Assembly (NCBI GenBank): GCA_964276515.1 | Contig: OZ193909.1 | Span: 11,966,001 to 12,030,000, forward strand | DNA length: 64,000 bases | Reading direction: 5' to 3' | Source: Gordius albopunctatus | Lineage: Eukaryota | Part shown: piece by piece, positions 1,871 to 47,022 of the stretch | Layout: each line of letters starts with the position of its first letter | Numbering within the stretch: position 1 is the first letter of the stretch | Position numbers and translations under genes: made by a program | Notes under the pieces: generated by a model | The model's input: only the letters and a program-made list of their open reading frames with translations | Databases searched by the model: none | What the model was told of the DNA's origin: nothing

Positions 1871-2288
1871 TAACAAGGATTTAATGGATTCCTCTCTTCT
1901 TTATTCATAAATAAAATTTATGAAATTAAAATTTTACCGATTAATTTGCAATTTATTGACGTTTGAAAAACGCCAAAATCGCTGTTTTCCAGCAACTTTG
2001 TCAGCAAATATTTCAAAAACTTTTCATATTAGAAAAAATTTAAAAAAAATATATTCGTGTTTACCGCGAAAAACTCTACCAAAATCTGCAAAGGTTTACC
2101 TGTTGCTTTTTCTTGTTCAACCGTGTTATTTTTCATTATTAATATTAAAGATGATTTATAATACGACGTAATTAGGATATGATGTAAACCATTTATCTAT
2201 CGCTAAGTACAAATCATTTTATGCTATAATGTTTTAAATTTCACATTCTTTTCCGTTTTCATTGATTTTTTTCTATATCTTTTTCAGT

Positions 2289-3137
2289 ATGGAAGAAATA
2301 GTTGTTATTGATCCATCCGATGAAATCACATTTCAGATAACCGATATCAAGCCAGTTGAACGTCCGCTAGTTATTTCAAATAGAATCAACAAATCTCTAC
2401 TATTTAAAATTACTTCCACAAGCCGAGATGTCATAAGGTGCTATCCTTCATCAGGGTTTATATTACCTAATAAAAAAGCAACAATAAATGTGACATACTT
2501 GCCCACCTCCTACAAAAATATAACCGATTATGGTGACAAAATTGTGATTACAATCAATGTTTGTAAAGATAATGAGGCGATTTCGGATGCAGATGAACAT
2601 TGGAAGGCCTTGGATCAATTGACGAGCAAAAAAACATACCAACAAAGTCTTAGAATAATTATACAGAATAGTGTATCCGTCGAACGATTAAGAGCTGCCG
2701 ATAAAGCACGTTATAATATGGCAAGTAGTGATGAAGATGCTATGGATTTTATAGAAGATTATGGCAAAGGTAGTTTCAATAAAAAATATTACGACCATTC
2801 CGCGTCGGACTCTATCTACGCTAAATTAGATAACACTCTGAGTGAAGATAATAATTTGAAAAATCAAATTTCAAAGGCTGAACAAGAACTTAAAAATGTT
2901 AAACATGATCGATCTAAACTGCATAAGGTGAATAGAGAAGCTGATAAAGCTAGATCGAGAATAGAGGCCGATTTAAAAGCAACTATTAAACGTGGCATGA
3001 GAGATCGGATGAAAACAATATACGCTATACAGATATTTTTTATGCTTTTCGCCATTGTCCTAATCAGTTATTGGTTCGAAGAGTTTTTAATGAGATACCT
3101 TGTCATAGATCCAACTGTTATGGCCAAAAAGCTTTAA
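2289..3137 (+). CDS. VAP-like protein (MSP domain, coiled coil, C-terminal TM), intronless, divergent
   Basis: First ATG at 2289 (the ORF track starts earlier, at a TTG). N-terminus VIDPSDEITF...ISNR...LLFKITSTS...YPSSGFILP matches the MSP fold. Heptad region LKNQISKAEQELKNVK. Hydrophobic tail IYAIQIFFMLFAIVLISYWF. AATAAA near 3215. Confidence 0.8.
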   Translation: MEEIVVIDPSDEITFQITDIKPVERPLVISNRINKSLLFKITSTSRDVIRCYPSSGFILPNKKATINVTYLPTSYKNITDYGDKIVITINVCKDNEAISDADEHWKALDQLTSKKTYQQSLRIIIQNSVSVERLRAADKARYNMASSDEDAMDFIEDYGKGSFNKKYYDHSASDSIYAKLDNTLSEDNNLKNQISKAEQELKNVKHDRSKLHKVNREADKARSRIEADLKATIKRGMRDRMKTIYAIQIFFMLFAIVLISYWFEEFLMRYLVIDPTVMAKKL

Positions 3138-3743: not shown

Positions 3744-4619
3744 TTATTCAAACCAAAACCACGATTTATCTCCGTTACCACATTCGGGTAAATTTGAGTT
3801 TGGGCATTTGTTGTAAAGCTCATCGTCGCTCGCAAAAAACTTTCCAGCGATATAGGATCCAAACAAATATCCAAGTAAAATTATAAAAAATGCCATGTTA
3901 ACAATGTTAGCGACGTGAGTGATTTTTATATGCTTTCGCAAGGTTTTAAGTTCTCGTTCATCCATACATGTTCTTTCAATTTCTCGTCGTAATAATTTCA
4001 TGTTGGCATTTTCCTGAGCCAACAGCCTGTATTCTTGGTTGAGCCAGAATATATCTTCTGAAACCTTACAGACATCATCTTTGTTAAATTCTGTCTTTTT
4101 TAAAAGCTGCTCTTGCTGTTTGCCACGGTTCGATGTTATTGATGACGATGAAGATTTATCCATGTCACGAGATGTAAACATCGGTGACAAGTTGTCAATA
4201 GGGCTACCATCTCTCACAATGTTATCAAGGATGACCGACTTTAATTTTGTGATGAAAACAGAATTTGACTCAGAATTTCCCACCATAATTTTTTTGTAAA
4301 AACTACTGTCGGTAGAGGGACCGTTGTTAGAAGAGCGAACTGCATTTATTACTATTTTTTCATTTGCATCATTTAAATGTTCTCCCCTAGCTTCGTTTAG
4401 TTTAAGGCTTATAATGATTTGAACGGATCCACTTGGTGTTATTATTCCACATTGGGGATGAATTTTATAAAGATGAGCGGCACCCTCCACATATATTTTA
4501 TAAATCACGTTATAATGGCTATTGTTTTTTAACACGAGTTTTTCTTTGGTTGTTCCTTGAATAAATGGACCGCGGAATATAAGATCTTTTTCCGGAATTA
4601 TGCTTAACAAGCCTTCCAT
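3744..4619 (-). CDS. VAP-like protein (MSP domain, coiled coil, TM, short Cys-containing tail), intronless, divergent
   Basis: LLSIIPEKDLIFRGPF...LVLKN...VIYKI...IHPQCGIITP resembles the VAP N-terminus. Coiled coil YRLLAQENANMKLLRRE. TM VANIVNMAFFIILLGYLFGSYIA. Confidence 0.85.
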   Translation of the reverse strand: MEGLLSIIPEKDLIFRGPFIQGTTKEKLVLKNNSHYNVIYKIYVEGAAHLYKIHPQCGIITPSGSVQIIISLKLNEARGEHLNDANEKIVINAVRSSNNGPSTDSSFYKKIMVGNSESNSVFITKLKSVILDNIVRDGSPIDNLSPMFTSRDMDKSSSSSITSNRGKQQEQLLKKTEFNKDDVCKVSEDIFWLNQEYRLLAQENANMKLLRREIERTCMDERELKTLRKHIKITHVANIVNMAFFIILLGYLFGSYIAGKFFASDDELYNKCPNSNLPECGNGDKSWFWFE

Positions 4620-5239
4620 TAAAATTTATATCTCATTTCTTATATGGTGACACTTAATAAGATCATTAGCTAATAACAAATAAATTTGATTGTTAAATAA
4701 CCTCAAATATTTCAATTGTTGTAATTATAAACATTAGAAATGGTAAAAATATATGAGAAGAAAGCGTTTAAATATATTTTAGTTTTAATCAATTTTAAAT
4801 CTTTGATATAAATAAATTATTTTAGGGACAAAATGATATTTTAAAAAACACGAGCATAAGCACAAATGGGGGCCTATAAAAATATTAGTTTTTTGACACA
4901 CTCTTTACTTCGTATATTATACAATTAGTTTATGAAAATAGGGGTCGGGGTTAGTCGGAGAGGGGCTGTTGCTAGCCATTTTTCATTGTCTTACAAATGA
5001 CAAGATTTAAAAACAAAATATTTTGTTTAATAATCTAACTTAGTGTTTTTTGGAATAGAAATAGACTAAAAATACATTATAAAACGACTAAAAGTTTTTT
5101 TCCGTTGCTAAATCCGTATATTAAGTGTTCTTAAGTCAGATTGTCATCTTGACCCTTTTTTATTTGTTTTATATAAAATAAAATCGGGAACCGGTCAAAG
5201 GCACACAGAAATAGCATCGAAATTCGTCATGATTGCTCA

Positions 5240-7722: not shown

Positions 7723-8094
7723 TATATTTATATTAAAGACGCTCAAAGCAGATGAAATTTAAATTTTTGTGAGATTTGGTCGAGCAATAAGCGAAGATGC
7801 AATGATGACAATTAAATAATGTCAGGTAAATGTTATTTAAAAGAGCCCTTATAAAAATACTGTTATGAAAGTAGTACTGTTTATAGCTTAAAACATAAAA
7901 TGTTAAAAAATTTCAATAAACAAAGGTAGGGGAGACCGGGGTTAATTTAGCCATAAAAAATTAAATCACGTTCTAAAAAAACTAAAAATTATTTTTACAA
8001 TTTTTTGTTCAAATATATTTTTAAGGTCTTGCTATAGGAAAAAAATTTGATTGGACAGGGAAAAGAAGAGTGTTATCTATATATATAAAGTAAA

Positions 8095-8151
8095 GTCTAT
8101 AACACTACGAACGACGGTCCCAAGTCCGTGTGAAAAAAGTGGAGGGTTGGC
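8095..8151 (+). ncRNA. twister ribozyme (P1-type) at the RTE 5' junction; predicted cleavage between 8100 and 8101
   Basis: U|AA site. P2 CACT(8103-06)/AGTG(8138-41). T2 AC(8107-08)/GT(8124-25). P4 ACGG(8114-17)/CCGT(8126-29). Loop TCCCAA with T1 CCC/GGG(8144-46). Catalytic G8142. Collinear with the rice Osa-1-4 twister as recalled, with compensatory changes in T2 and P4. Confidence 0.85.
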
Positions 8152-11100
8152 GTCAGGTCGGAAACCGGCTGTAAAAAGCAACTCCAAACACCATGGCAGC
8201 TTCAAATACGAACTTATACCAGAATGCTAAGGCGTCCTCCCCAAACGACGCGCATTGCATCATCCGCCCGTGCAATGTGAAAAGAATACAAGGGTCACCG
8301 CCTCACTCACAGCGAAGGCGGTTAAGGAACCTAGTTGTCGAACGGACAAGAGTGGCTAGCTGGAATGTAGGCACGCTGACGGGGAAGAGCATCGAGGTTG
8401 CGCAGACGCTAAAAAGGCGAAGGATACACATAGCGTGTCTACAAGAAACACGGTGGCATGGAACAAAAGCCAGGGAGCTAGGAGATGGTTACAAGCTATA
8501 CTACTCGGGTTCCCCATCACGGAAGAACGGCGTCGGTATAGTGCTTAGCGATTCCTTTAAGGACAAGGTAGTCGAAGTCAAACGATGCTCGGATAGATTG
8601 ATGTGCATAAAATGTTATTTGTGCGTATTCGCCCCAGGTTGGATGTTCCGAAAACGAGAAGGACGAATTCTATGAGAAGCTCGAAGAAGAAATACGCTAC
8701 GTGAAGCCTGACGAGAATCTCATCATCGGAGCAGACTTTAATGGGCACGTTGGGAAAGAAAGGGGCGTGTACGAACGAAATCACGGCGGGCATGGCTATG
8801 GAGTGAAAAATAAAGAGGGAGAGAAGTTACTACAGATGGCGCAAGCTTACGATATGGCCATTGTGAATACCTTCTTTCAGAAGCGTACCGAACATTTAGC
8901 GACGTACAGTAGTGGAAATCACCTACATATTAGTGAAGCGCATAAATTTGTGGCAAGTTAAAGATTGCAAGGTTATACCGGGGGAAGAAATCGCCAAACA
9001 ACATCGGCCAGTTGTCCTCGATATAGCAAGAAAGATTTTTCCCGTAAGGAGAAAAGTCTACACACCAAGGACAAAGTACGAAAAGCTTAAGGATGATCAT
9101 GCAAATGAAATGTTTCACACTCGAGCAACTCCGCTCTTGAAGGTTGCAGGCTTGGAGGGCGACATTAACAAAAGGTGGGGCACCGTTGCAAATGTTCTAA
9201 AGGAAACGGCCTTACAAATATTAGGACGAACTAAGGGCGGCAGAGCTCACAAGCGTGAACTATGGTGGTGGAATGACTCGGTCAAAGAGGTTATAGAAGA
9301 AAAGAAGGCGTTGTACCTACGATGGTACAAAACGAAGAAAGGAGAAGACTACGAGGCATATCGTGAAGCGAAACGCAAAGCTAAGATAGCGGTCGCGATA
9401 GCGAAGAACGACGCTTACACCGAGATGGCAAACAAGCTCGATACCAAGGGCGGCGACATAGTCATGTATAAACTCGCAAAGATCAGGGAGAAAAAAAGTC
9501 GAGATGTCGGGACACTTAAAGTCATTAAAAGCGAAGAGGGACGAACGTTGTGCAAACCGAAGGAAATCATCAAAAGATGGAAAGATTATTTCCAAAATAT
9601 GATGAACAAAACGAATGATAGAAGACCGCTAGAGAGGGTGGAGCCGAACTCGAACTTGGTTTTACCATTTCAGGCTTATGAAATAGGAGCACAAATAACG
9701 AAGATGCGGAAAGGGAAAGCGCTAGGTCCCGATGATCTACCGATCGAAGCTTGGCTTGGGTGCAAAGGAGAAGGAATCGACAAAATGACAGGCCTATTTA
9801 ACGCTATGCTGTATGAGAGTCGTATCCCTGACCAATGGAGGGAAAGTACGATCATACCTATATACAAAGGTAAAGGAGACGCGCAGGAATGTGGCAACTT
9901 TAGAGGTATCAAGTTGACCTGCCACTCACTAAAACTACTAGAAAGGGTGCTAGTGAAAAGGCTCAATGACGAAGTTTCTCTCTCGCCCAATCAGTTTGGA
10001 TTTGTGGCCGGTAAATCAACGATGGACCCAATCTTTGCGTTGAAGCAGACGATGGAAAAATATGGCGACATAAGAAAGAAATTACACATGGTCTTCATCG
10101 ATTTAGAAAAGGCCTACGATACGGTTCCGAGAGACTTAATATGGTGGTCCCTTAGAGCCAGAAATATACCCGAAGGATATGTTCGACTTATCAAGGAAAT
10201 GTATAATGGCGCGGTTGCATCTGTTAGGAGTACCGTAGGAGTAACGAAACCCTTCCGAATAATGATCGGACTACATCAAGGATCAGCGTTAAGCCCATTC
10301 TTGTTTAATCTAATTATGGATACAATAACAAAGGACTTGCACAAGCCAGCCCCTTGGACTATGCTATATGCCGACGATATTGTCCTATGCGATGAAACAA
10401 GAGAAGGGGTTTTTCATCAGGCGAAAAAATGGTCAGAACGTTTCTCGGAATTCGGGTTAAAGGTCAGCGAGAAGAAAACGGTTTACATGCAAACGATGGG
10501 CGGTAGTCCGCAAATGCACAAAATTGACGGTCCAAGGTACACGGAGGTTGATAAGTTCACATATCTTGGCTCGCTATTACATCAAGAGGGAGGATGTACC
10601 GCCGAAGTCCAGTCTCGGATCAAGAAAGCATGGCTCAAGTGGCGCAGCATCTCCGGTGTCATGTGTGACAAAAAGATACCAATTTGGTTGAAAAGCAAGG
10701 CGTACAAAACCATCGTGCGACCGGTCTTGCTTTACGGGAGCGAAACATGGGCTGTAACCTGCGCGGAGGAGAAACTCTTGCAAGTCACGGAAATGAGAAT
10801 GGTGCGATGGAGCTTAGGCTACACCAAGCTGGATCGCATGACGAACGAATCCTTGATGACAAAGATGGGTATACAAGCGACGAAGGACTTCTTAAGAGAA
10901 AATCAACTGCGGTGGTACGGCCATGTATTACGAAGAGACGAAGACGATGTCACACGCCGAACGCTGGAGATGGACGTGCCTGGAAGAAGAGGAAGGGGCA
11001 GACCACGTGCCACCTGGAAACGACTGGTCGAAAAGGATATGGACGTCAAACAGATGGAAATTGGTATGGCATTCACACGACTCAGATGGAAGAGGCTGCT

Positions 11101-11154
11101 GAAAACGTACCCCACGTCTGTGGGATTTTCAACACGATAAAGAAGAAGAAGAAG
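8101..11154 (+). mobile_element. full-length RTE-clade non-LTR retrotransposon (young copy)
   Basis: Perfect 16-bp TSD ATAAAGTAAAGTCTAT at 8085-8100 and 11155-11170. (AAG)n tail directly after the stop. Single APE+RT reading frame. Sharp GC contrast with the flanks. Confidence 0.95.
8193..11140 (+). pseudogene. RTE ORF (apurinic-like endonuclease + reverse transcriptase) with two frameshifts in the endonuclease
   Basis: EN motifs SWNVGTL, IACLQETRW, GVGI, CAYSP, GADFNGHVG. RT motifs FRGIKL, QFGF, FIDLEKAYD, GLHQGSALSP, LYADD, YLG. C-terminal LRWYGHVLRR and GRRGRGRP. Frame breaks near 8610 and 8922. Confidence 0.92.
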
Positions 11155-11167
11155 ATAAAGTAAAGTC

Positions 11168-11455
11168 TATGTATGTATGTATGTATGTATGTATGTATGT
11201 ATGTATGTATGTATGTATGTATGTATGTATGTATGTATGTATGTATGTATGTATGTATGTATGTATGTATGTATGTATGTATGTATGTATGTATGTATGT
11301 ATGTATGTATGTATGTATGTATGTATGTATGTATGTATGTATGTATGTATGTATGTATGTATGTATGTATGTATGTATGTATGTATGTATGTATGTATGT
11401 ATGTATGTATGTATGTATGTATGTATGTATGTATGTATGTATGTATGTATGTATG

Positions 11456-11485
<30 letters not shown>
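11168..11485. repeat. perfect (TATG)n microsatellite, about 79 units
   Basis: Uninterrupted TATG array; it accounts for the spurious MYVC ORFs. Confidence 0.98.
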
Positions 11486-39944: not shown

Positions 39945-40317
39945 TAATAATCTGAATACAATAATATACAGCATGTGATAAAATTACATTATTTCAATCA
40001 TTATGAAGGTGTTGAGTATTTAGGGACATTATTTTTGAAAAGAACTTTTTCAATGCCCTATAAATCCTATTGATATAAAAATTTAAGCCTATATTCTTAT
40101 CCTTTCTTTGTCCAAATACTACAACAAATATAAACATAAAGTTTTAAAACAATTTCTTTTAGATATTTTCACTCGAATCTTAACCTTAATTTTAAAGGCA
40201 AAACCGCAGTTCTATATTTTATGTTGTTGGAAGTATTCGCAGAAATTTATTTGCAAATTTTGACATCAAAAATTAATAATTGGCAAATTAATTAATAACA
40301 TAAGTAGATAGAAAATT

Positions 40318-43177
40318 ACACTACATAAGACAGTCCCAATATGTGTGCAAAAAGTGAAGGCTTAATCTCAAATAAAAACCCAGTTGACCCACTCCAAATT
40401 ATGATAGTTTTAAAATAACTCTACAACAGAGGTGCGTCCTCCATAAATGGACGCATTGCATCTCATGAATGTAGAAATGCACTAGGGTTATCGATTGACT
40501 CAAAACAAAGGGGGTTAAAATATTATTTGTGTAGAATGTGAATAACATGCTGGAGTCGTGCCTAATATAGAAGGGACTAGGTGGAATGGAACTTGCTCGG
40601 GTGTTAGGAAAGGGATACGAGTTAATTAACAGTAAGCCACCAAACGGCAGAAACAGGGTCGGCATCGTCCTAAGCGAATCGTTCAAGGACAAGGTGGTGG
40701 AAATTTAAATGATGCTCAGAAAGTTAATGTATTGCAGATCAAGGAGGCCTTTTAACGCTTATGTGCGCCTATGCTCCTATGGACATACAAGCAATACGAC
40801 AGGTAAAAAAGCTAATTATTATGGCGGACTTTAACGCTTACTTAGGGAACGATTGTCTTGAATATGAAAGAAATCATGTAGGATATTGAAGAACAAAAGT
40901 AAAGGGGAGAACTTCTTATCATATAGGCTATGGGTATGGCTTGAAAAACTAAATAAAAGGGGAGAACTTCTTACAGGATCCTAAGCATAAGACTTATCGA
41001 TCGTTAACATATATCTTCAAAAGCACGAAGATCATATTGTGATTATAAACGCGGAAAGCATGTTAGTTAAATTGCCTATCTTTAATACGGCGTAAGGATT
41101 TATGAAGGATCAAAGATCGCAAAGTAATACTATGAGAAAAAATCACCAGACAATCAAGTCTATTTGTTAAGGATATTGAAAGAAATGTGTCTCCTCAAAG
41201 AAGAAATAATTATGGACCTTTAATTAGATACGAGGTTATAAAGTAACGTGACAAACAATATATACCATTCGAAAGCCCTCACACTTTTGGGTGCCAGAAA
41301 GATGGAAGGCACATAGACCACTGTTAGACTCTAACAGAGGACATTAAGGGAATGGCTATTCATGTTCTAGAACATACCAAAGATTGAAAGAAAATTCTAT
41401 ACTGACGGTGGCATAAATCAAAAAAATTTGAAGGAGTATAAATAGGGAGGAAAAGAGAGTTGCAAACAAGGTTCTTACAATAATAGCGAAGAATTCTGCG
41501 TACACCGAGATTGCAAACAAACTGGATTATGAAGATGACAACAGGCTGATGTAAAAACAATAATAAGGGAGAAGTAATGTCGCCATGCGGGAGTCTTCAA
41601 AATAGTCAAAAACGACAATGTTCGAACATATTTTAAGCTGAAGGTGGTAATGGAAAGTACGAAAGGAAGGATGTTTTAAGTAACTTATAATATTGAAAAT
41701 TACAAAGATATCCTTACAATTATTTAGCCAAACATAAATAGTCTAACGAGGGTGAAGACAGAACACAAATGAACAAAATGCTAAAAGGAAAGGCTAATGG
41801 CCTAGATAGATTATTTATGGAAGCATGGGTCGGATACTGGGAGGAAGGAGTTACGATCATGATTTAAAATGATTTTGGGAGAAGAACGAATCTCTAATCT
41901 GGAGAGCAAGCAGGATTAAACCCTTCTTCAGAGGCAAAGGGGACCTTCACGAGTGTACCAATTACAGAGGTGTCAAAGCTGACAAATCCACAATCGAGTT
42001 TATCTTTGCACTAGACAAATAATAAATACATATGAGGAAAGGAGAAGAAACTCACTTTTAAGATGGGGTAAAAGTTAAGTGAAAGAGAAAGTGCCTTTAG
42101 CCTGGGTAGGGGAGAGAGAAAGTAACGTGCGTCTTTTGTAAAGTACAACACTTACATGTAGTCTTAATTCATTTAGAGAAAGATTATGACAGATTCCTGG
42201 CGATTTAGCATTGGTGCTTGGAAAACAAAATATCCTTGAATTATATAAAAAATATTTATGAACACTCAAATTCTTGCTTTAGAACGACGGCTGGGGACTC
42301 AAAACCTTTTCGGTTCAAAAGTGAATAACAAGGATCTGCCTAAGTTCTTTTCTAATTAATATAATTGTATACATGATAACTAAAGACATTTAAAAGCCAT
42401 CTCCTTAGAGTATGCTATATGCCGATGATTTAGTACAATGCCATGAGACAAAGGAAAAAGTTTTCAAAAACCGAAAAGTGGTCAAATTGCTTAGCTGGAT
42501 ATATTTTAAAGGTCAACAATCGAAAAACGGTATACATGGATGTGAAACTTACAGGCCTCCATTGCTAAATGCAGAATTAATGTACCAAAAAGTAGAGAGA
42601 TATACATACTTCACCTCAATACTGCATCAAGAGGAAGGTTGGGCAATCCAAGTCATTGAACATACCCAAAAAAGATACTTTAAATGGCAAAGTATATTCG
42701 GTTTCTTTTGTGACAAGACGATATCTATATGGTTAGAGAGCAAGATTTACAAATTCCATCGCAAGACCGTTGTTTCCCTATGAAAGTGAAACAAGGGCTT
42801 TAAAGGATATGGAAGAAATATTATTAGAAGCCACCGAGATGATAAGGATTCAATGAAGCTCGGGGTATCCTAAACTCGCTATATAACGAATGACTGTCTC
42901 AGATCAAAAATGGGTTTTCAATATATGGCAAACTTGAAAAACAAAAATCGGCTTATGTGGTACGGTCATATATAAAGAAAGCAGATCAATGATGTACAAA
43001 ATGTTTTGGACATGGAGGTGCTGGGGGAGGGAGAGGACTACCTCCTTAGGTGGAAAGGGCAAACGGAAAAGTTATGGGAGGTAAGAAGAAAAATCCCAAC
43101 ATGTCTCTTACCTAATTAAGATAGAAGGAAATTATCGAATCAAACCTCACGACCGTGTAAGCAAATACATGAAAAAA
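40318..43177 (+). mobile_element. old, decayed full-length RTE copy related to the 8101 element
   Basis: Collinear remnants (GGGTCGGCATCGTCCTAAGCGAATCGTTCAAGGACAAGGTGGTGG; MLYADD ORF 42412-42783; TGGTACGGTCAT). TSD AAGTAGATA(G/A)AAAATT at 40302-40317 and 43178-43193 (15/16 match). Many stops and indels. Confidence 0.88.
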
Positions 43178-44203
43178 AAGTAGATAAAAAATTAGTTATT
43201 TTCCCCAATTAGTAAATATTAAAAAAAATATTGCCTTTCTCGCTTTCATTTAAGAATGAACCTAGATCTAATAACTTTAAAACAACCTAAATTGTTTGTA
43301 CATCAAGTAATTTATCATTTTGGAAATTTAGCAGTTATTTTCTTACTACCTTTATAATTGATTACTTATACTGTTAAAATTTTTTTACATAACTAATTAA
43401 ATCATAAAGTAACTGTTCAAACATTTGAACCCGTGACACATTAGTAAAATTTAACTTCAGCTTTAGAAAATTTAAATTCCCTTGCTACACTCCGTTATTT
43501 TGTAATTTTATTTAAAATGGTCGTGATGTTGCTAAAGCAAACGCGTCCCTGTTTCCACAATGAATACAAGTTTATTATGTGTTTTACTAAAAATATAAAG
43601 TCTCCATATAATATTATTATGCTTATAAAGAGCAGACAGTTATAAATTACTGTTACCAAATATACATGTGAAATTAAGAGTTTTTTAAAGTTGTGGTATT
43701 TATGTTATAAATCTTTTTAATTGAATAAAGACAACTAATATATAAAATACTAAATCATGAATTTAGCATCTCGCTGAATAGACCAAATCCCTTAGTAAAG
43801 TAGACAACTTATTCTATTCTTTTTTATTTGACAAGGTATGGTATAGGAAAAGATTTTTTTTATATTTATGATTATAAATTATTATTAAACTATTTGCTTA
43901 TTTAATTAATTTATATTATTTTTAGGAATATTTGCACAAAATGAAAATAATAATTCAGGCCACACATTATAACCATTTATTGCAACATATATACATCGGT
44001 AGTATGTTTAAAATAAAAATATTGATGCAAATAAAGTACAATAAACATTCTGTCCAAATATATTTAATCAAAAGATCATTCAATGATATTGATACAATTT
44101 AGAGCATAAAAGCTTTTAATGAAATTGCTTAATAATTTATACACACCTAACTTTAAATTACTAATGATATTTGTTTACAAAACTCTTTTGGATCAATTAA
44201 TCA

Positions 44204-45595
44204 TCACCGCCTTCTAGTGTATTGTATTAACTTGAGGTAAGGTCCCCGAAACTTTTTGTTCATCAGGCCATACATGAAGGGGTTAATTGAAGAATTGGTT
44301 ATGCTAAGGACCGGTGCTAAGCGAAAAAACCACAAGGGAAAGTGTGTAATGTTTTCCAATATAACAGTTATGTTCCAGGGAAACCAACACAGGGTAAATG
44401 CGACGAAAAATATCAGAAGAAAAATGTTAGTTTTCTGATCCCGCCTACCCCGACGCAATACTGCTGATGTTGGAATGTTTATAAAATTCCTATTAATCAT
44501 ATTAGAATGTTGCGGAGTGATTGCCGCTATATTAAATTTTGGCTCCAGGTCAGTCTGGGTACTAGTTATAGTGTCCGGTGTAACTTTCGAACCACAAGTA
44601 AAAATGTTGTCACTTAAAAGGTGGCGCCTATTAATCATTCCTGTGGCATGTATATCAACTCGCAATTTGGATTTTCTAAAATATAAACATTAGAATATAT
44701 GAGTATGTTAAATTATCTAAATACTAATTTGGACAATATATTTGAATCAAACTTTAAAGATAATTTTTCTTTTAATCCAAATAATTGGCAATTAAATATT
44801 TTATGCCTTTGTTGTTTTTAAATTACTTTTTTATCTACCATATCATTGTTCAATTAAAAATACATTATGATATAATTTTATTGATATATCTTACCTTACT
44901 AATCTAAATATTTTATAGTAGCAATACGAGGCCGCTATCAAAGAGGGTATCATACACAACATGGATATAATAAAACCCCAACTTATCATCGTATGTCTAT
45001 AAGTGTCGCTCCAAAGACAACCCCTAAATTTGGAATGATATCCGAATGTTCCCAAATCAAAATGAGGAATTAATGGAAGCAATGTTAGCACAAGGGATAT
45101 GATCCAGGATAAAAATATCCAAAGCCATATCATTTTACGACCAAAGCAACGATGATAAGTGGCCTGAGGTTTAGCGACTAAAATGAAACGATTTATTCCT
45201 ATTAGCGCCAATGAATACAATGATTCACAAAACATGAATACATTAATGCCACCCATGATCTGACATGTCACTATTTCTTGAGAATACTTATTTTTCAGAG
45301 CTAATGATACGATGAAATACAATGGTCCTGATAATAGGCATATGCTTAAATCTGCTATGCTTAGGTTTGCTACCAATATATTGCCGACGTTTTGAAAAAG
45401 TGAATGATCGAATTTGAAAGCCAGTACAACTCCACCGTTACCTACAATACCGATCAAACACATCACTAGTATAAACCAGAAATAGTTATAAAAGGAAAAT
45501 ATTTGTTGAACGGGATATGTGCTATTGGACTTGTTGGTGTATATCGAGGATAAAGTAGTATCATTAAAATTTAAGCTAAAGTAAGCTTTAGACAT
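44204..45595 (-). CDS. class A GPCR, moody/Tre1/melatonin-receptor-like; two exons (45595-44895, 44675-44204)
   Basis: TM1 GIVGN, TM2 NLSIADL, TM3 ending INRF, TM6 CWFP, TM7 NSSINPFMY. A phase-2 GT-AG intron (44676-44894) joins LVR to KSKLRV. Confidence 0.88.
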
Positions 45596-47022
45596 TGTTT
45601 TATAATAATTGGTAGTTATGGTAAAATCCTTTGATTTAGCGGTGCAGAAAATTGAAATTTAATGTTGAATTAAACATATAAAGTACTTTAGATATTCTTA
45701 AATATAGTTGCTTCTATAAATAGGCATGTTTACCGACATGGGATGTAGATTAATAGTAATTAATGGGAAATGAGGGGGTTTAATTAAAAGTGTATTAATT
45801 TGCAAATTACAACAAAATAAATATATCTAATACTTATGGTGCATCTTATTAATAATACCTCATTGCATACTAACTCCATTAATGTGCAAATGTTCGGATC
45901 TATAATTAGATATATATATTACTTACATTAAGATAATTATATTATAGGTTCATAACCAAACGTTTTTACAATCCTAAAATTATCGAAGAGCTACAGAATA
46001 TTAAATTAAATTTTAAAGGAAAGATATGTATATATATATACTCTTAAAGCTAATTTTCATATTGCTTTAAAATAGTAGTTAAATGTTATATTCAATTTAA
46101 AAATATAAAAGTCATGTAGGTCTCAAAAAAGTATTTTTTAGTACAATTTTTAAAATTTTTGCTTAAAATTCGATTAGCTATAAATATTCACGTTTAAAAA
46201 TAATTCATTTTCAATAAAAATGCTTTTGAAATTGTTAACTCTGGAAATAGTGATGAAAAATGCGTGTAAATCAAAAAATACAAAAAGGACGCAGATGTCA
46301 ACTTTAAAATGCTAAGATTTAACTTTAAAATCATTAAATATTATAACATAAATGATTTTAAAAGCAAGTTTTTAGTAATAATTTGTAAATGCTAAACAAC
46401 CCTTAAAATTTATAGCCAGAGTAAACTTTAAGTACTTTTCATTAAACGCTAGGTTCAAAGGGGAAATAATTATGCTAGAATTTCATATGCCTAAATTTTG
46501 TTTGAAATTCCTGAAAGACAGTAGTAAAGTTGTTTGTAAAACTATATATATAAAACGAAAAGAATTTGGGAGCCAAAAATATAATAGTATCAATATGTCG
46601 TTGTTAAAAATGAAACCTAGGTTGTTGTATTAATCTTTCAAATTTTCGTTCCTATATCAATAAAAAATTTATATTATAGGTAAATCACTTCTTATTTTAT
46701 GACTTCGTTAGCCATATATTCTCTCCCTCTTGTCAATTGTGTAAGTCTCCTTATTTGTAAATATGGTTTTTTTAACCCTAACTTAATCATCTATGGTTAT
46801 CCTAAATTAAAACACCATTGTTTCATTTACTTTGAATCAATTTATAAATTTCCACATACCCGACAGGTACCAGTGTATTCTGTACTTGTCGCAAACATAG
46901 AGGTATTTCATTTAAAAAGTTACAATTTAATTACTTTATCTTTCTTGGTTCGCGAATTATTCTCGCCTACGAACCACCGTAACGCAATTCCGACCTACCT
47001 TCTTTATTTATTTATGTATACT

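Follow-up and report, generated by a model that had tools for sequence, protein, structure and literature searches.

The RTE-like element described here has its first base where a twister ribozyme is predicted to cut, and the ribozyme probably serves, largely independently of the flanking sequence, to release the RNA of the element from transcripts that read through from the host. The element lies on the forward strand of the window (the whole 64,000-nucleotide stretch of DNA analysed here), as do all of its features given below, and occupies positions 8101–11154 (3054 bp) between exact 16-bp direct repeats. These repeats are the two copies of the target-site duplication (TSD) ATAAAGTAAAGTCTAT, at 8085–8100 and, identically, at 11155–11170; its length would be 15 bp if A11155 were assigned to the tail. 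Since the element begins at A+1 of the twister core, both U(-1) and the 5' strand of P1 fall in the TSD.

Elements of the RTE clade are about 3 kb long and contain a single open reading frame encoding an APE endonuclease followed by a reverse transcriptase (RT), with no separate ORF1. The element at 8101–11154 has each of these traits, together with a microsatellite-like (AAG)n 3' tail (about 11140–11155) and the 16-bp TSD. Its single APE and RT frame (8193–11140) encodes Pfam Exo_endo_phos and RVT_1 domains and carries two frameshifts in this copy, such that it is read in pieces at 8175–8675, 8611–8961 and 8900–11140; the first ATG lies 92 nt after the predicted cut and its frame enters the endonuclease domain. 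Relatives of the protein at 40–46% identity occur in fish, plants, insects and nematodes, and no named RTE reference was among the protein-search matches; the element is called RTE-like, an assignment to RTE-type LINEs by anatomy and domains. Searches for relatives by RT confirmed none of 7 candidates in viral contigs and none of 20 in prokaryote contigs. The 3' TSD copy runs into a perfect (TATG)79 microsatellite (79.5 units, 11168–11485) that begins within it; nothing like it follows the 5' copy, and the element sits at the edge of the array. Elsewhere in the window two single-ORF proteins, each about 295 aa long, are encoded in convergent orientation, one with an MSP domain (2238–3137, forward) and one similar to it by eye (3744–4625, reverse; a VAP-like pair), and a rhodopsin-family GPCR on the reverse strand (44204–45658) for a piece of which the sole match among 620 candidates (E <= 1e-10) is a protein of the hairworm Gordionus named melatonin receptor 1C-like, at 56% identity. 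By this match the host would probably be a nematomorph or related to one.

The ribozyme was recognized by a match to the type P1 twister family (Rfam RF03160) at 8096–8150, with 42.9 bits (E 2.6e-8) against a curated gathering score of 67.2 bits; at gathering thresholds an Rfam scan of the window gave no match. With a score below that cut-off, no P3 and a P1 derived from the host, the ribozyme is filed as a T-variant-like twister. According to the RF03160 alignment the element-encoded core spans 8101–8146 and comprises P2 (8103–8106/8138–8141), P4 (8114–8117/8126–8129) and two pseudoknots (8107–8108/8124–8125 and 8119–8121/8144–8146), in which 13 of 13 pairs are Watson–Crick. It retains the conserved A8101 at +1, the predicted general base G8142, the L4 sequence GUCCCAAG and GAGGG. 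The features of T-variants, which have 0–7 As at the cut, are likewise found here: a conserved core of the 2A variant, a relaxed P1 with one mismatch, and a position at the 5' end of an APE and RT LINE whose TSD adjoins AA. The predicted scissile U|A step, and thus the predicted site of twister self-cleavage, is 8100|8101, where T8100 is the last base of the TSD and A8101 the first of the element. An HDV-like ribozyme had been the first candidate for the element 5' end and was dropped, as the Rfam match is to a twister.

Two observations count against the preferred reading at this point. Cleavage at 8100|8101 is a prediction from sequence with an Rfam score under the gathering cut-off, and in an unconstrained fold of 8060–8200 rival helices sequester both the P2 5' strand and the segment GGAG/UUG; unconstrained folding is, for a pseudoknotted RNA, uninformative (z about +1). 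In that predicted fold the segment containing GGAG/UUG and the catalytic G (8141–8151) pairs with the downstream sequence GCAACUCC (8179–8187), a pairing that could possibly represent an alternative fold of the 5' UTR, with the ribozyme off or after cleavage.

The closest published system is Perere-3, an RTE element of S. mansoni that bears twister T-variants at its 5' end, where the TSD adjoins AA and forms the 5' strand of P1 (PMC8501958). From Perere-3 and from twister biochemistry, the course of events at the present element would be that a host promoter reads through it, the core, once folded, cuts ahead of AA, and the resulting 5'-AA RNA is translated and copied through target-primed reverse transcription. 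In the Perere-3 study, continued activity of a copy was proposed to hinge on where it had inserted (Figure 5D model, PMC8501958); both the TSD-completed layout and this licensing model are therefore already in print for Perere-3. An earlier case of completion by host sequence is R2, in which the host 28S rRNA completes the HDV-like ribozyme of the element (PMC3774820). A literature search found no paper that combines twister, ribozyme and Nematomorpha.

The anatomy of the flank agrees with the first-pass annotation of this DNA, which had noticed that the bases upstream of the cut, GTCTA-T (8095–8100), belong to the target duplication and would supply the missing part of the ribozyme. These bases are inside the exact 16-bp repeat, the boundary between TSD and element coincides with the predicted cut, and the TSD thus supplies N(-1) and any 5' partner of P1. 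The host-derived P1 5' strand (8095–8099) can form four of five pairs with the element-encoded 3' strand TTGGC (8147–8151), exactly as had been read (G8095–C8151, T8096–G8150, C8097–G8149, a T8098/T8148 mismatch and A8099–T8147), and the final T restores U|A in a register, 8100|8101, that agrees with the Rfam twister-P1 alignment. In sequencing runs the TTGGC strand has only about 1–2% variants. As the last three letters of the 3' TSD copy are also the first TATG unit, T8100 is most simply read as host DNA, which is not proven. Were the TSD instead to end at A8099, T8100 would be non-templated or derived from the parent element and its match to T11170 would be due to chance. T makes up 35–42% of the background and T11170 also belongs to the TATG microsatellite, both of which are consistent with such an origin; the exact 16-bp match includes T8100, however, and the host reading needs no further assumption, so that a non-host T8100 appears improbable.

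The host-derived pairing itself is at the level of chance. With both elements and the microsatellite set aside, at least four of five pairs to UUGGC are possible at 10.1% of background sites in the window, and 3.1% have T(-1) as well, and the gain from P1 in a constrained fold is -0.1 kcal/mol, which 18% of background flanks equal or better. T is 35% of background bases, and 42% in AT-rich stretches. No 4-mer is expected to pair with random flanks at more positions than the 16 made only of G and U (2.0 of 4, compared with a mean of 1.5), and UUGG is one of these. The four pairs at 8101 would then be luck, aided by a strand that can pair at about half of random positions.

It might be expected from this layout, and the first-pass annotation suggested, that mobilization of a new copy depends on whether its insertion site rebuilds the ribozyme. 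The published biochemistry argues against such a requirement. Substrates with CAA, GAA and AAA cleave in vitro, any base serving as N(-1) (PMC8501958), twisters that lack P1 cleave at nearly the wild-type rate (PMC5408937), and in a high-throughput survey defects in P1 were without effect on cleavage and P1 was dispensable (PMC11662667). About half of the sister junctions listed below also lack T(-1), and the suggestion in its strict form is not supported. In the form that it shares with the Figure 5D model, flanks are random, and copies turn into sources only where the flank offers a U(-1) and P1 good enough for rapid cutting in vivo. Rates do differ among T-variants, some 3A, 4A and 7A variants being slower (PMC8501958), so the flank can modulate activity, a point that also counts against a largely flank-independent ribozyme. 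UUGG is kept in both Perere-3 and the present element, which hints at a role for the strand, and a census of daughter copies is blind to selection on a few source copies. Set against these points are the dispensability of P1, the tolerance of imperfections in it and of any N(-1) in the studies just cited, and the -0.1 kcal/mol that is all the native P1 adds here; the well-paired copy at 8101, having two frameshifts, is no evidence of a licensed source. Selection of source copies by their flanks is consequently judged unlikely.

The homologous copies in the supplement of PMC8501958 permit the flanks to be counted, and the first-pass annotation had asked whether full-length copies are enriched for T at -1 and for complementarity to TTGGC. 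Motifs were counted at positions -1 to -3 in the DNA-letter parts of that supplement, a set of mixed species (mainly Schistosoma in the part covered) in which copies may be repeated, above all in the A class, and which derives partly from published twisters biased toward U. Before an intact AA the base at -1 is T in 691, A in 315, C in 250 and G in 156 of these 1412 cases, such that T reaches 48.9% where 32.5% is expected from the 65% AT given in the paper, an enrichment of about 1.5-fold; T is 63% of T, C and G together (48% expected), and C exceeds G (p 4e-6). The RNA-letter counts (U588 A222 C182 G110) were excluded from the tests, because part of them is already in the DNA set and U-ascertained published twisters are among them. 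The base at -2 is a purine able to pair in 369 of 690 cases where T stands at -1 (p 0.07), in 109 of 250 with C there and in 84 of 156 with G; the pooled count in this supplement (562/1096, p 0.42) is at background, as is that of P1 partners at -3 after AT (105/240). Only the first of the two enrichments is thus observed in this Schistosoma-type set: a modest excess of T(-1), with no enrichment of P1 complementarity at -2 or -3. Liu et al. (PMC8501958) ascribed the flank bias to AT-richness, and a test of enrichment at -1 or in P1 was not found in the covered sections of that paper, whose figures and scanned Supplementary Tables 1, 5 and 7 may hold a tally.

Junctions of the family itself were obtained from assembly contigs of 4 of 22 sequencing runs (X1–X4) aligned to the 5' junction; what is counted is contigs and not verified insertions, diverged subfamilies are among them, and the window itself may come from X1. 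Base frequencies rest on these counts, with summed depth set aside. A contig that starts at 8099 has A(-2) and T(-1), one that starts at 8100 has T(-1) and not A(-2), and one that starts at 8101 has another base at -1. In all four runs the 5' ends of the family cluster at the predicted cut, 8100/8101. Among the junctions listed, those at 8100 (T) and 8101 (non-T) number 24/32 in X1, 18/30 in X3 and 25/35 in X4, and X2 has none at 8100 and 3 at 8101; with a shorter stretch, X1 has 6 (8099) and 17 (8100) against 19 (8101) and X4 has 12 (8100) against 22 (8101), the fractions of T being lower bounds in every case except X1 on the shorter stretch. T(-1) is therefore present in 23 of the 42 listed X1 junctions (55%; p 0.006 against a background of 34.5%, p 0.065 against 42%) and in at least 12 of 34 in X4, which is not significant. 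The pairing A(-2) is seen in 6 of the 23 listed X1 junctions with T, compared with a background of 35–39%, and the most frequent base at -2 in all five listed rows of 8100 junctions is T, a base unable to pair with U. T(-1) is, by these junctions, no requirement, and they bear no sign of selection for P1. The notion that T(-1) is more common than background accordingly stands for the Schistosoma-type set, within the limits of that supplement, and possibly for the present family. By these counts, P1 complementarity plays no part in the choice of new flanks, of which about half are without T(-1).

In many of the X1–X4 contigs the match covers the twister and the first 88 nt, beyond which the sequence resembles that of an older copy in the window (see below), with 62–84 loose contig ends at 8188 in X1, X3 and X4 among the matches listed; the family has at least two subfamilies. 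Several contigs have short internal skips between 8143 and 8267, which may mark non-autonomous derivatives.

An alternative proposal was that 5' joining is guided by a P1-like pairing of UUGGC with the top strand of the target. The four of five pairs at the 8101 copy and the weak trend at -2 after T would be in keeping with such guidance, yet there is no enrichment pooled at -2 or at -3 in the supplement counts, the plurality base at -2 is T in each of the five junction rows, and the old copy pairs poorly. By the logic of the sequence, moreover, the strand present in the cDNA is the complement of UUGGC, for which GTCTA could not be a partner. Guidance by P1 is thus very improbable.

That old copy, a decayed copy of a related element at 40318–43177 (forward strand), had been offered as a second case, being likewise preceded by T. 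It is indeed preceded by T, and it supports nothing beyond this. Its degenerate twister has one A at the cut and an A in place of the general-base G, its probable TSD (40302–40318, 17 nt, forward strand) has one mismatch to 43178–43194, and the single A may itself belong to that duplication. Read by hand, the flank makes three of five or one of five P1 pairs depending on the register.

An excess of T(-1) with no excess of P1 partners fits a one-base joining chemistry or a nick preference, and does not fit P1-guided joining. Selection of source copies cannot shift a census of daughter flanks, and a real excess would thus have to come from the chemistry of integration. Reverse transcriptases of non-LTR elements append non-templated bases, mostly A in R2, and jump best onto an overhang complementary to these at +1 or +2 (PMC8857657, PMC10830420, PMC3774820). 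There is reason to think, at a little under even confidence, that a non-templated dA (or dG) on the cDNA anneals to a 3' T (or C) of the top strand during 5' joining; G as the second-choice base would give C over G, and the canonical UAA would be regenerated in about half of copies as a by-product of dA capture. Against this step, full-length L1 5' ends are mostly direct joins with no microhomology (PMC4245944).

For the joining step alone, the excess could instead arise from an endonuclease that nicks the top strand preferentially after a pyrimidine. The excess of C over G at -1 in the supplement is consistent with such a preference, both inferred nicks at the present locus, as read from the TSD alignment, are pyrimidine|purine steps, and sequence signatures at the first nick have been described for RTE elements (PMC6007223). 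The profiles of PMC6007223 concern the first and not the last base of the TSD, however, and 0A/1A ends in the Liu supplement have no excess of T, which is found in 58 of 132 T/C/G cases (44%, compared with 63% for intact AA; Fisher p 3e-5), a control confounded by its inclusion of point-mutated As. Capture by dA is favored, and a nick preference is held to be less likely; neither would need P1.

Several features are shared with Perere-3 as described in PMC8501958: a single APE and RT frame, a twister core at the exact 5' end, a 5'-AA start, a TSD that adjoins the cut and forms the P1 5' strand, a short-repeat tail and a GAGGG-UUGG 3' strand (Table 1). The UUGG at 8147–8150 equals the P1 3' strand of Perere-3 although its partner is random host DNA, and a longer motif occurs 1217 times in the supplement. 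The two elements differ in P2 (CACU/AGUG in Perere-3, CUCC/GGAG here), in the P3 hairpin that is lacking here, in the tail (GTAA in Perere-3, (AAG)n here) and in the distance from the cut to the first AUG (about 112–147 nt in Perere-3, 92 nt here). Core motifs of the present family had no match in that supplement. On its ribozyme P2 and P3 and on these motifs, the element at 8101–11154 would stand apart from Perere-3 and is not filed under that name. As in R2, the host target is part of the ribozyme and processing of a co-transcript makes the 5' end; R2 is site-specific, and its host strand is constant, essential and retained on the cleaved RNA (PMC3774820), whereas the flank of a twister-RTE element is variable and cut off, and P1 is dispensable.

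With a generic twister pattern, 1 locus was found among viral contigs and a further 21 came from metagenomes, and tblastn matched the protein of the element at none of these 22, so no flanks were gained from them. The plant-type type-P1 twisters among them (L002–L022) share the RF03160 core, L4 and pseudoknots; most have a complementary P1 of their own (of the GTGCC/GGCAC type), which the present element does not. Most are near-identical, lie behind G-rich tracts and have a perfect P1, and in L014 the 3' half of the core is joined to unrelated upstream sequence.

A broader conjecture, and an unlikely one as it stands, is that twister RTEs are built as plug-in-anywhere ribozymes: the non-templated A of the RT would capture targets ending in T, UAA would be remade in about half of copies, and the G/U-only UUGG, common to flatworm and hairworm-like hosts, would be kept for its capacity to half-pair with almost any flank. 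As the core idea is in print, the present locus mainly extends twister-RTE elements to another lineage, probably a nematomorph-like one, in the form of a minimal twister lacking P3. What is added is a set of numbers, with an enrichment of about 1.5-fold for T(-1) and none for P1 partners. The literature cited here, in the parts covered, calls the start of LINE second-strand joining poorly understood. Because the ribozyme fixes the RNA's 5' end to the base, one-base microhomology becomes countable, and, if an unbiased census agrees, twister-defined 5' ends would be a natural read-out of how this joining starts.
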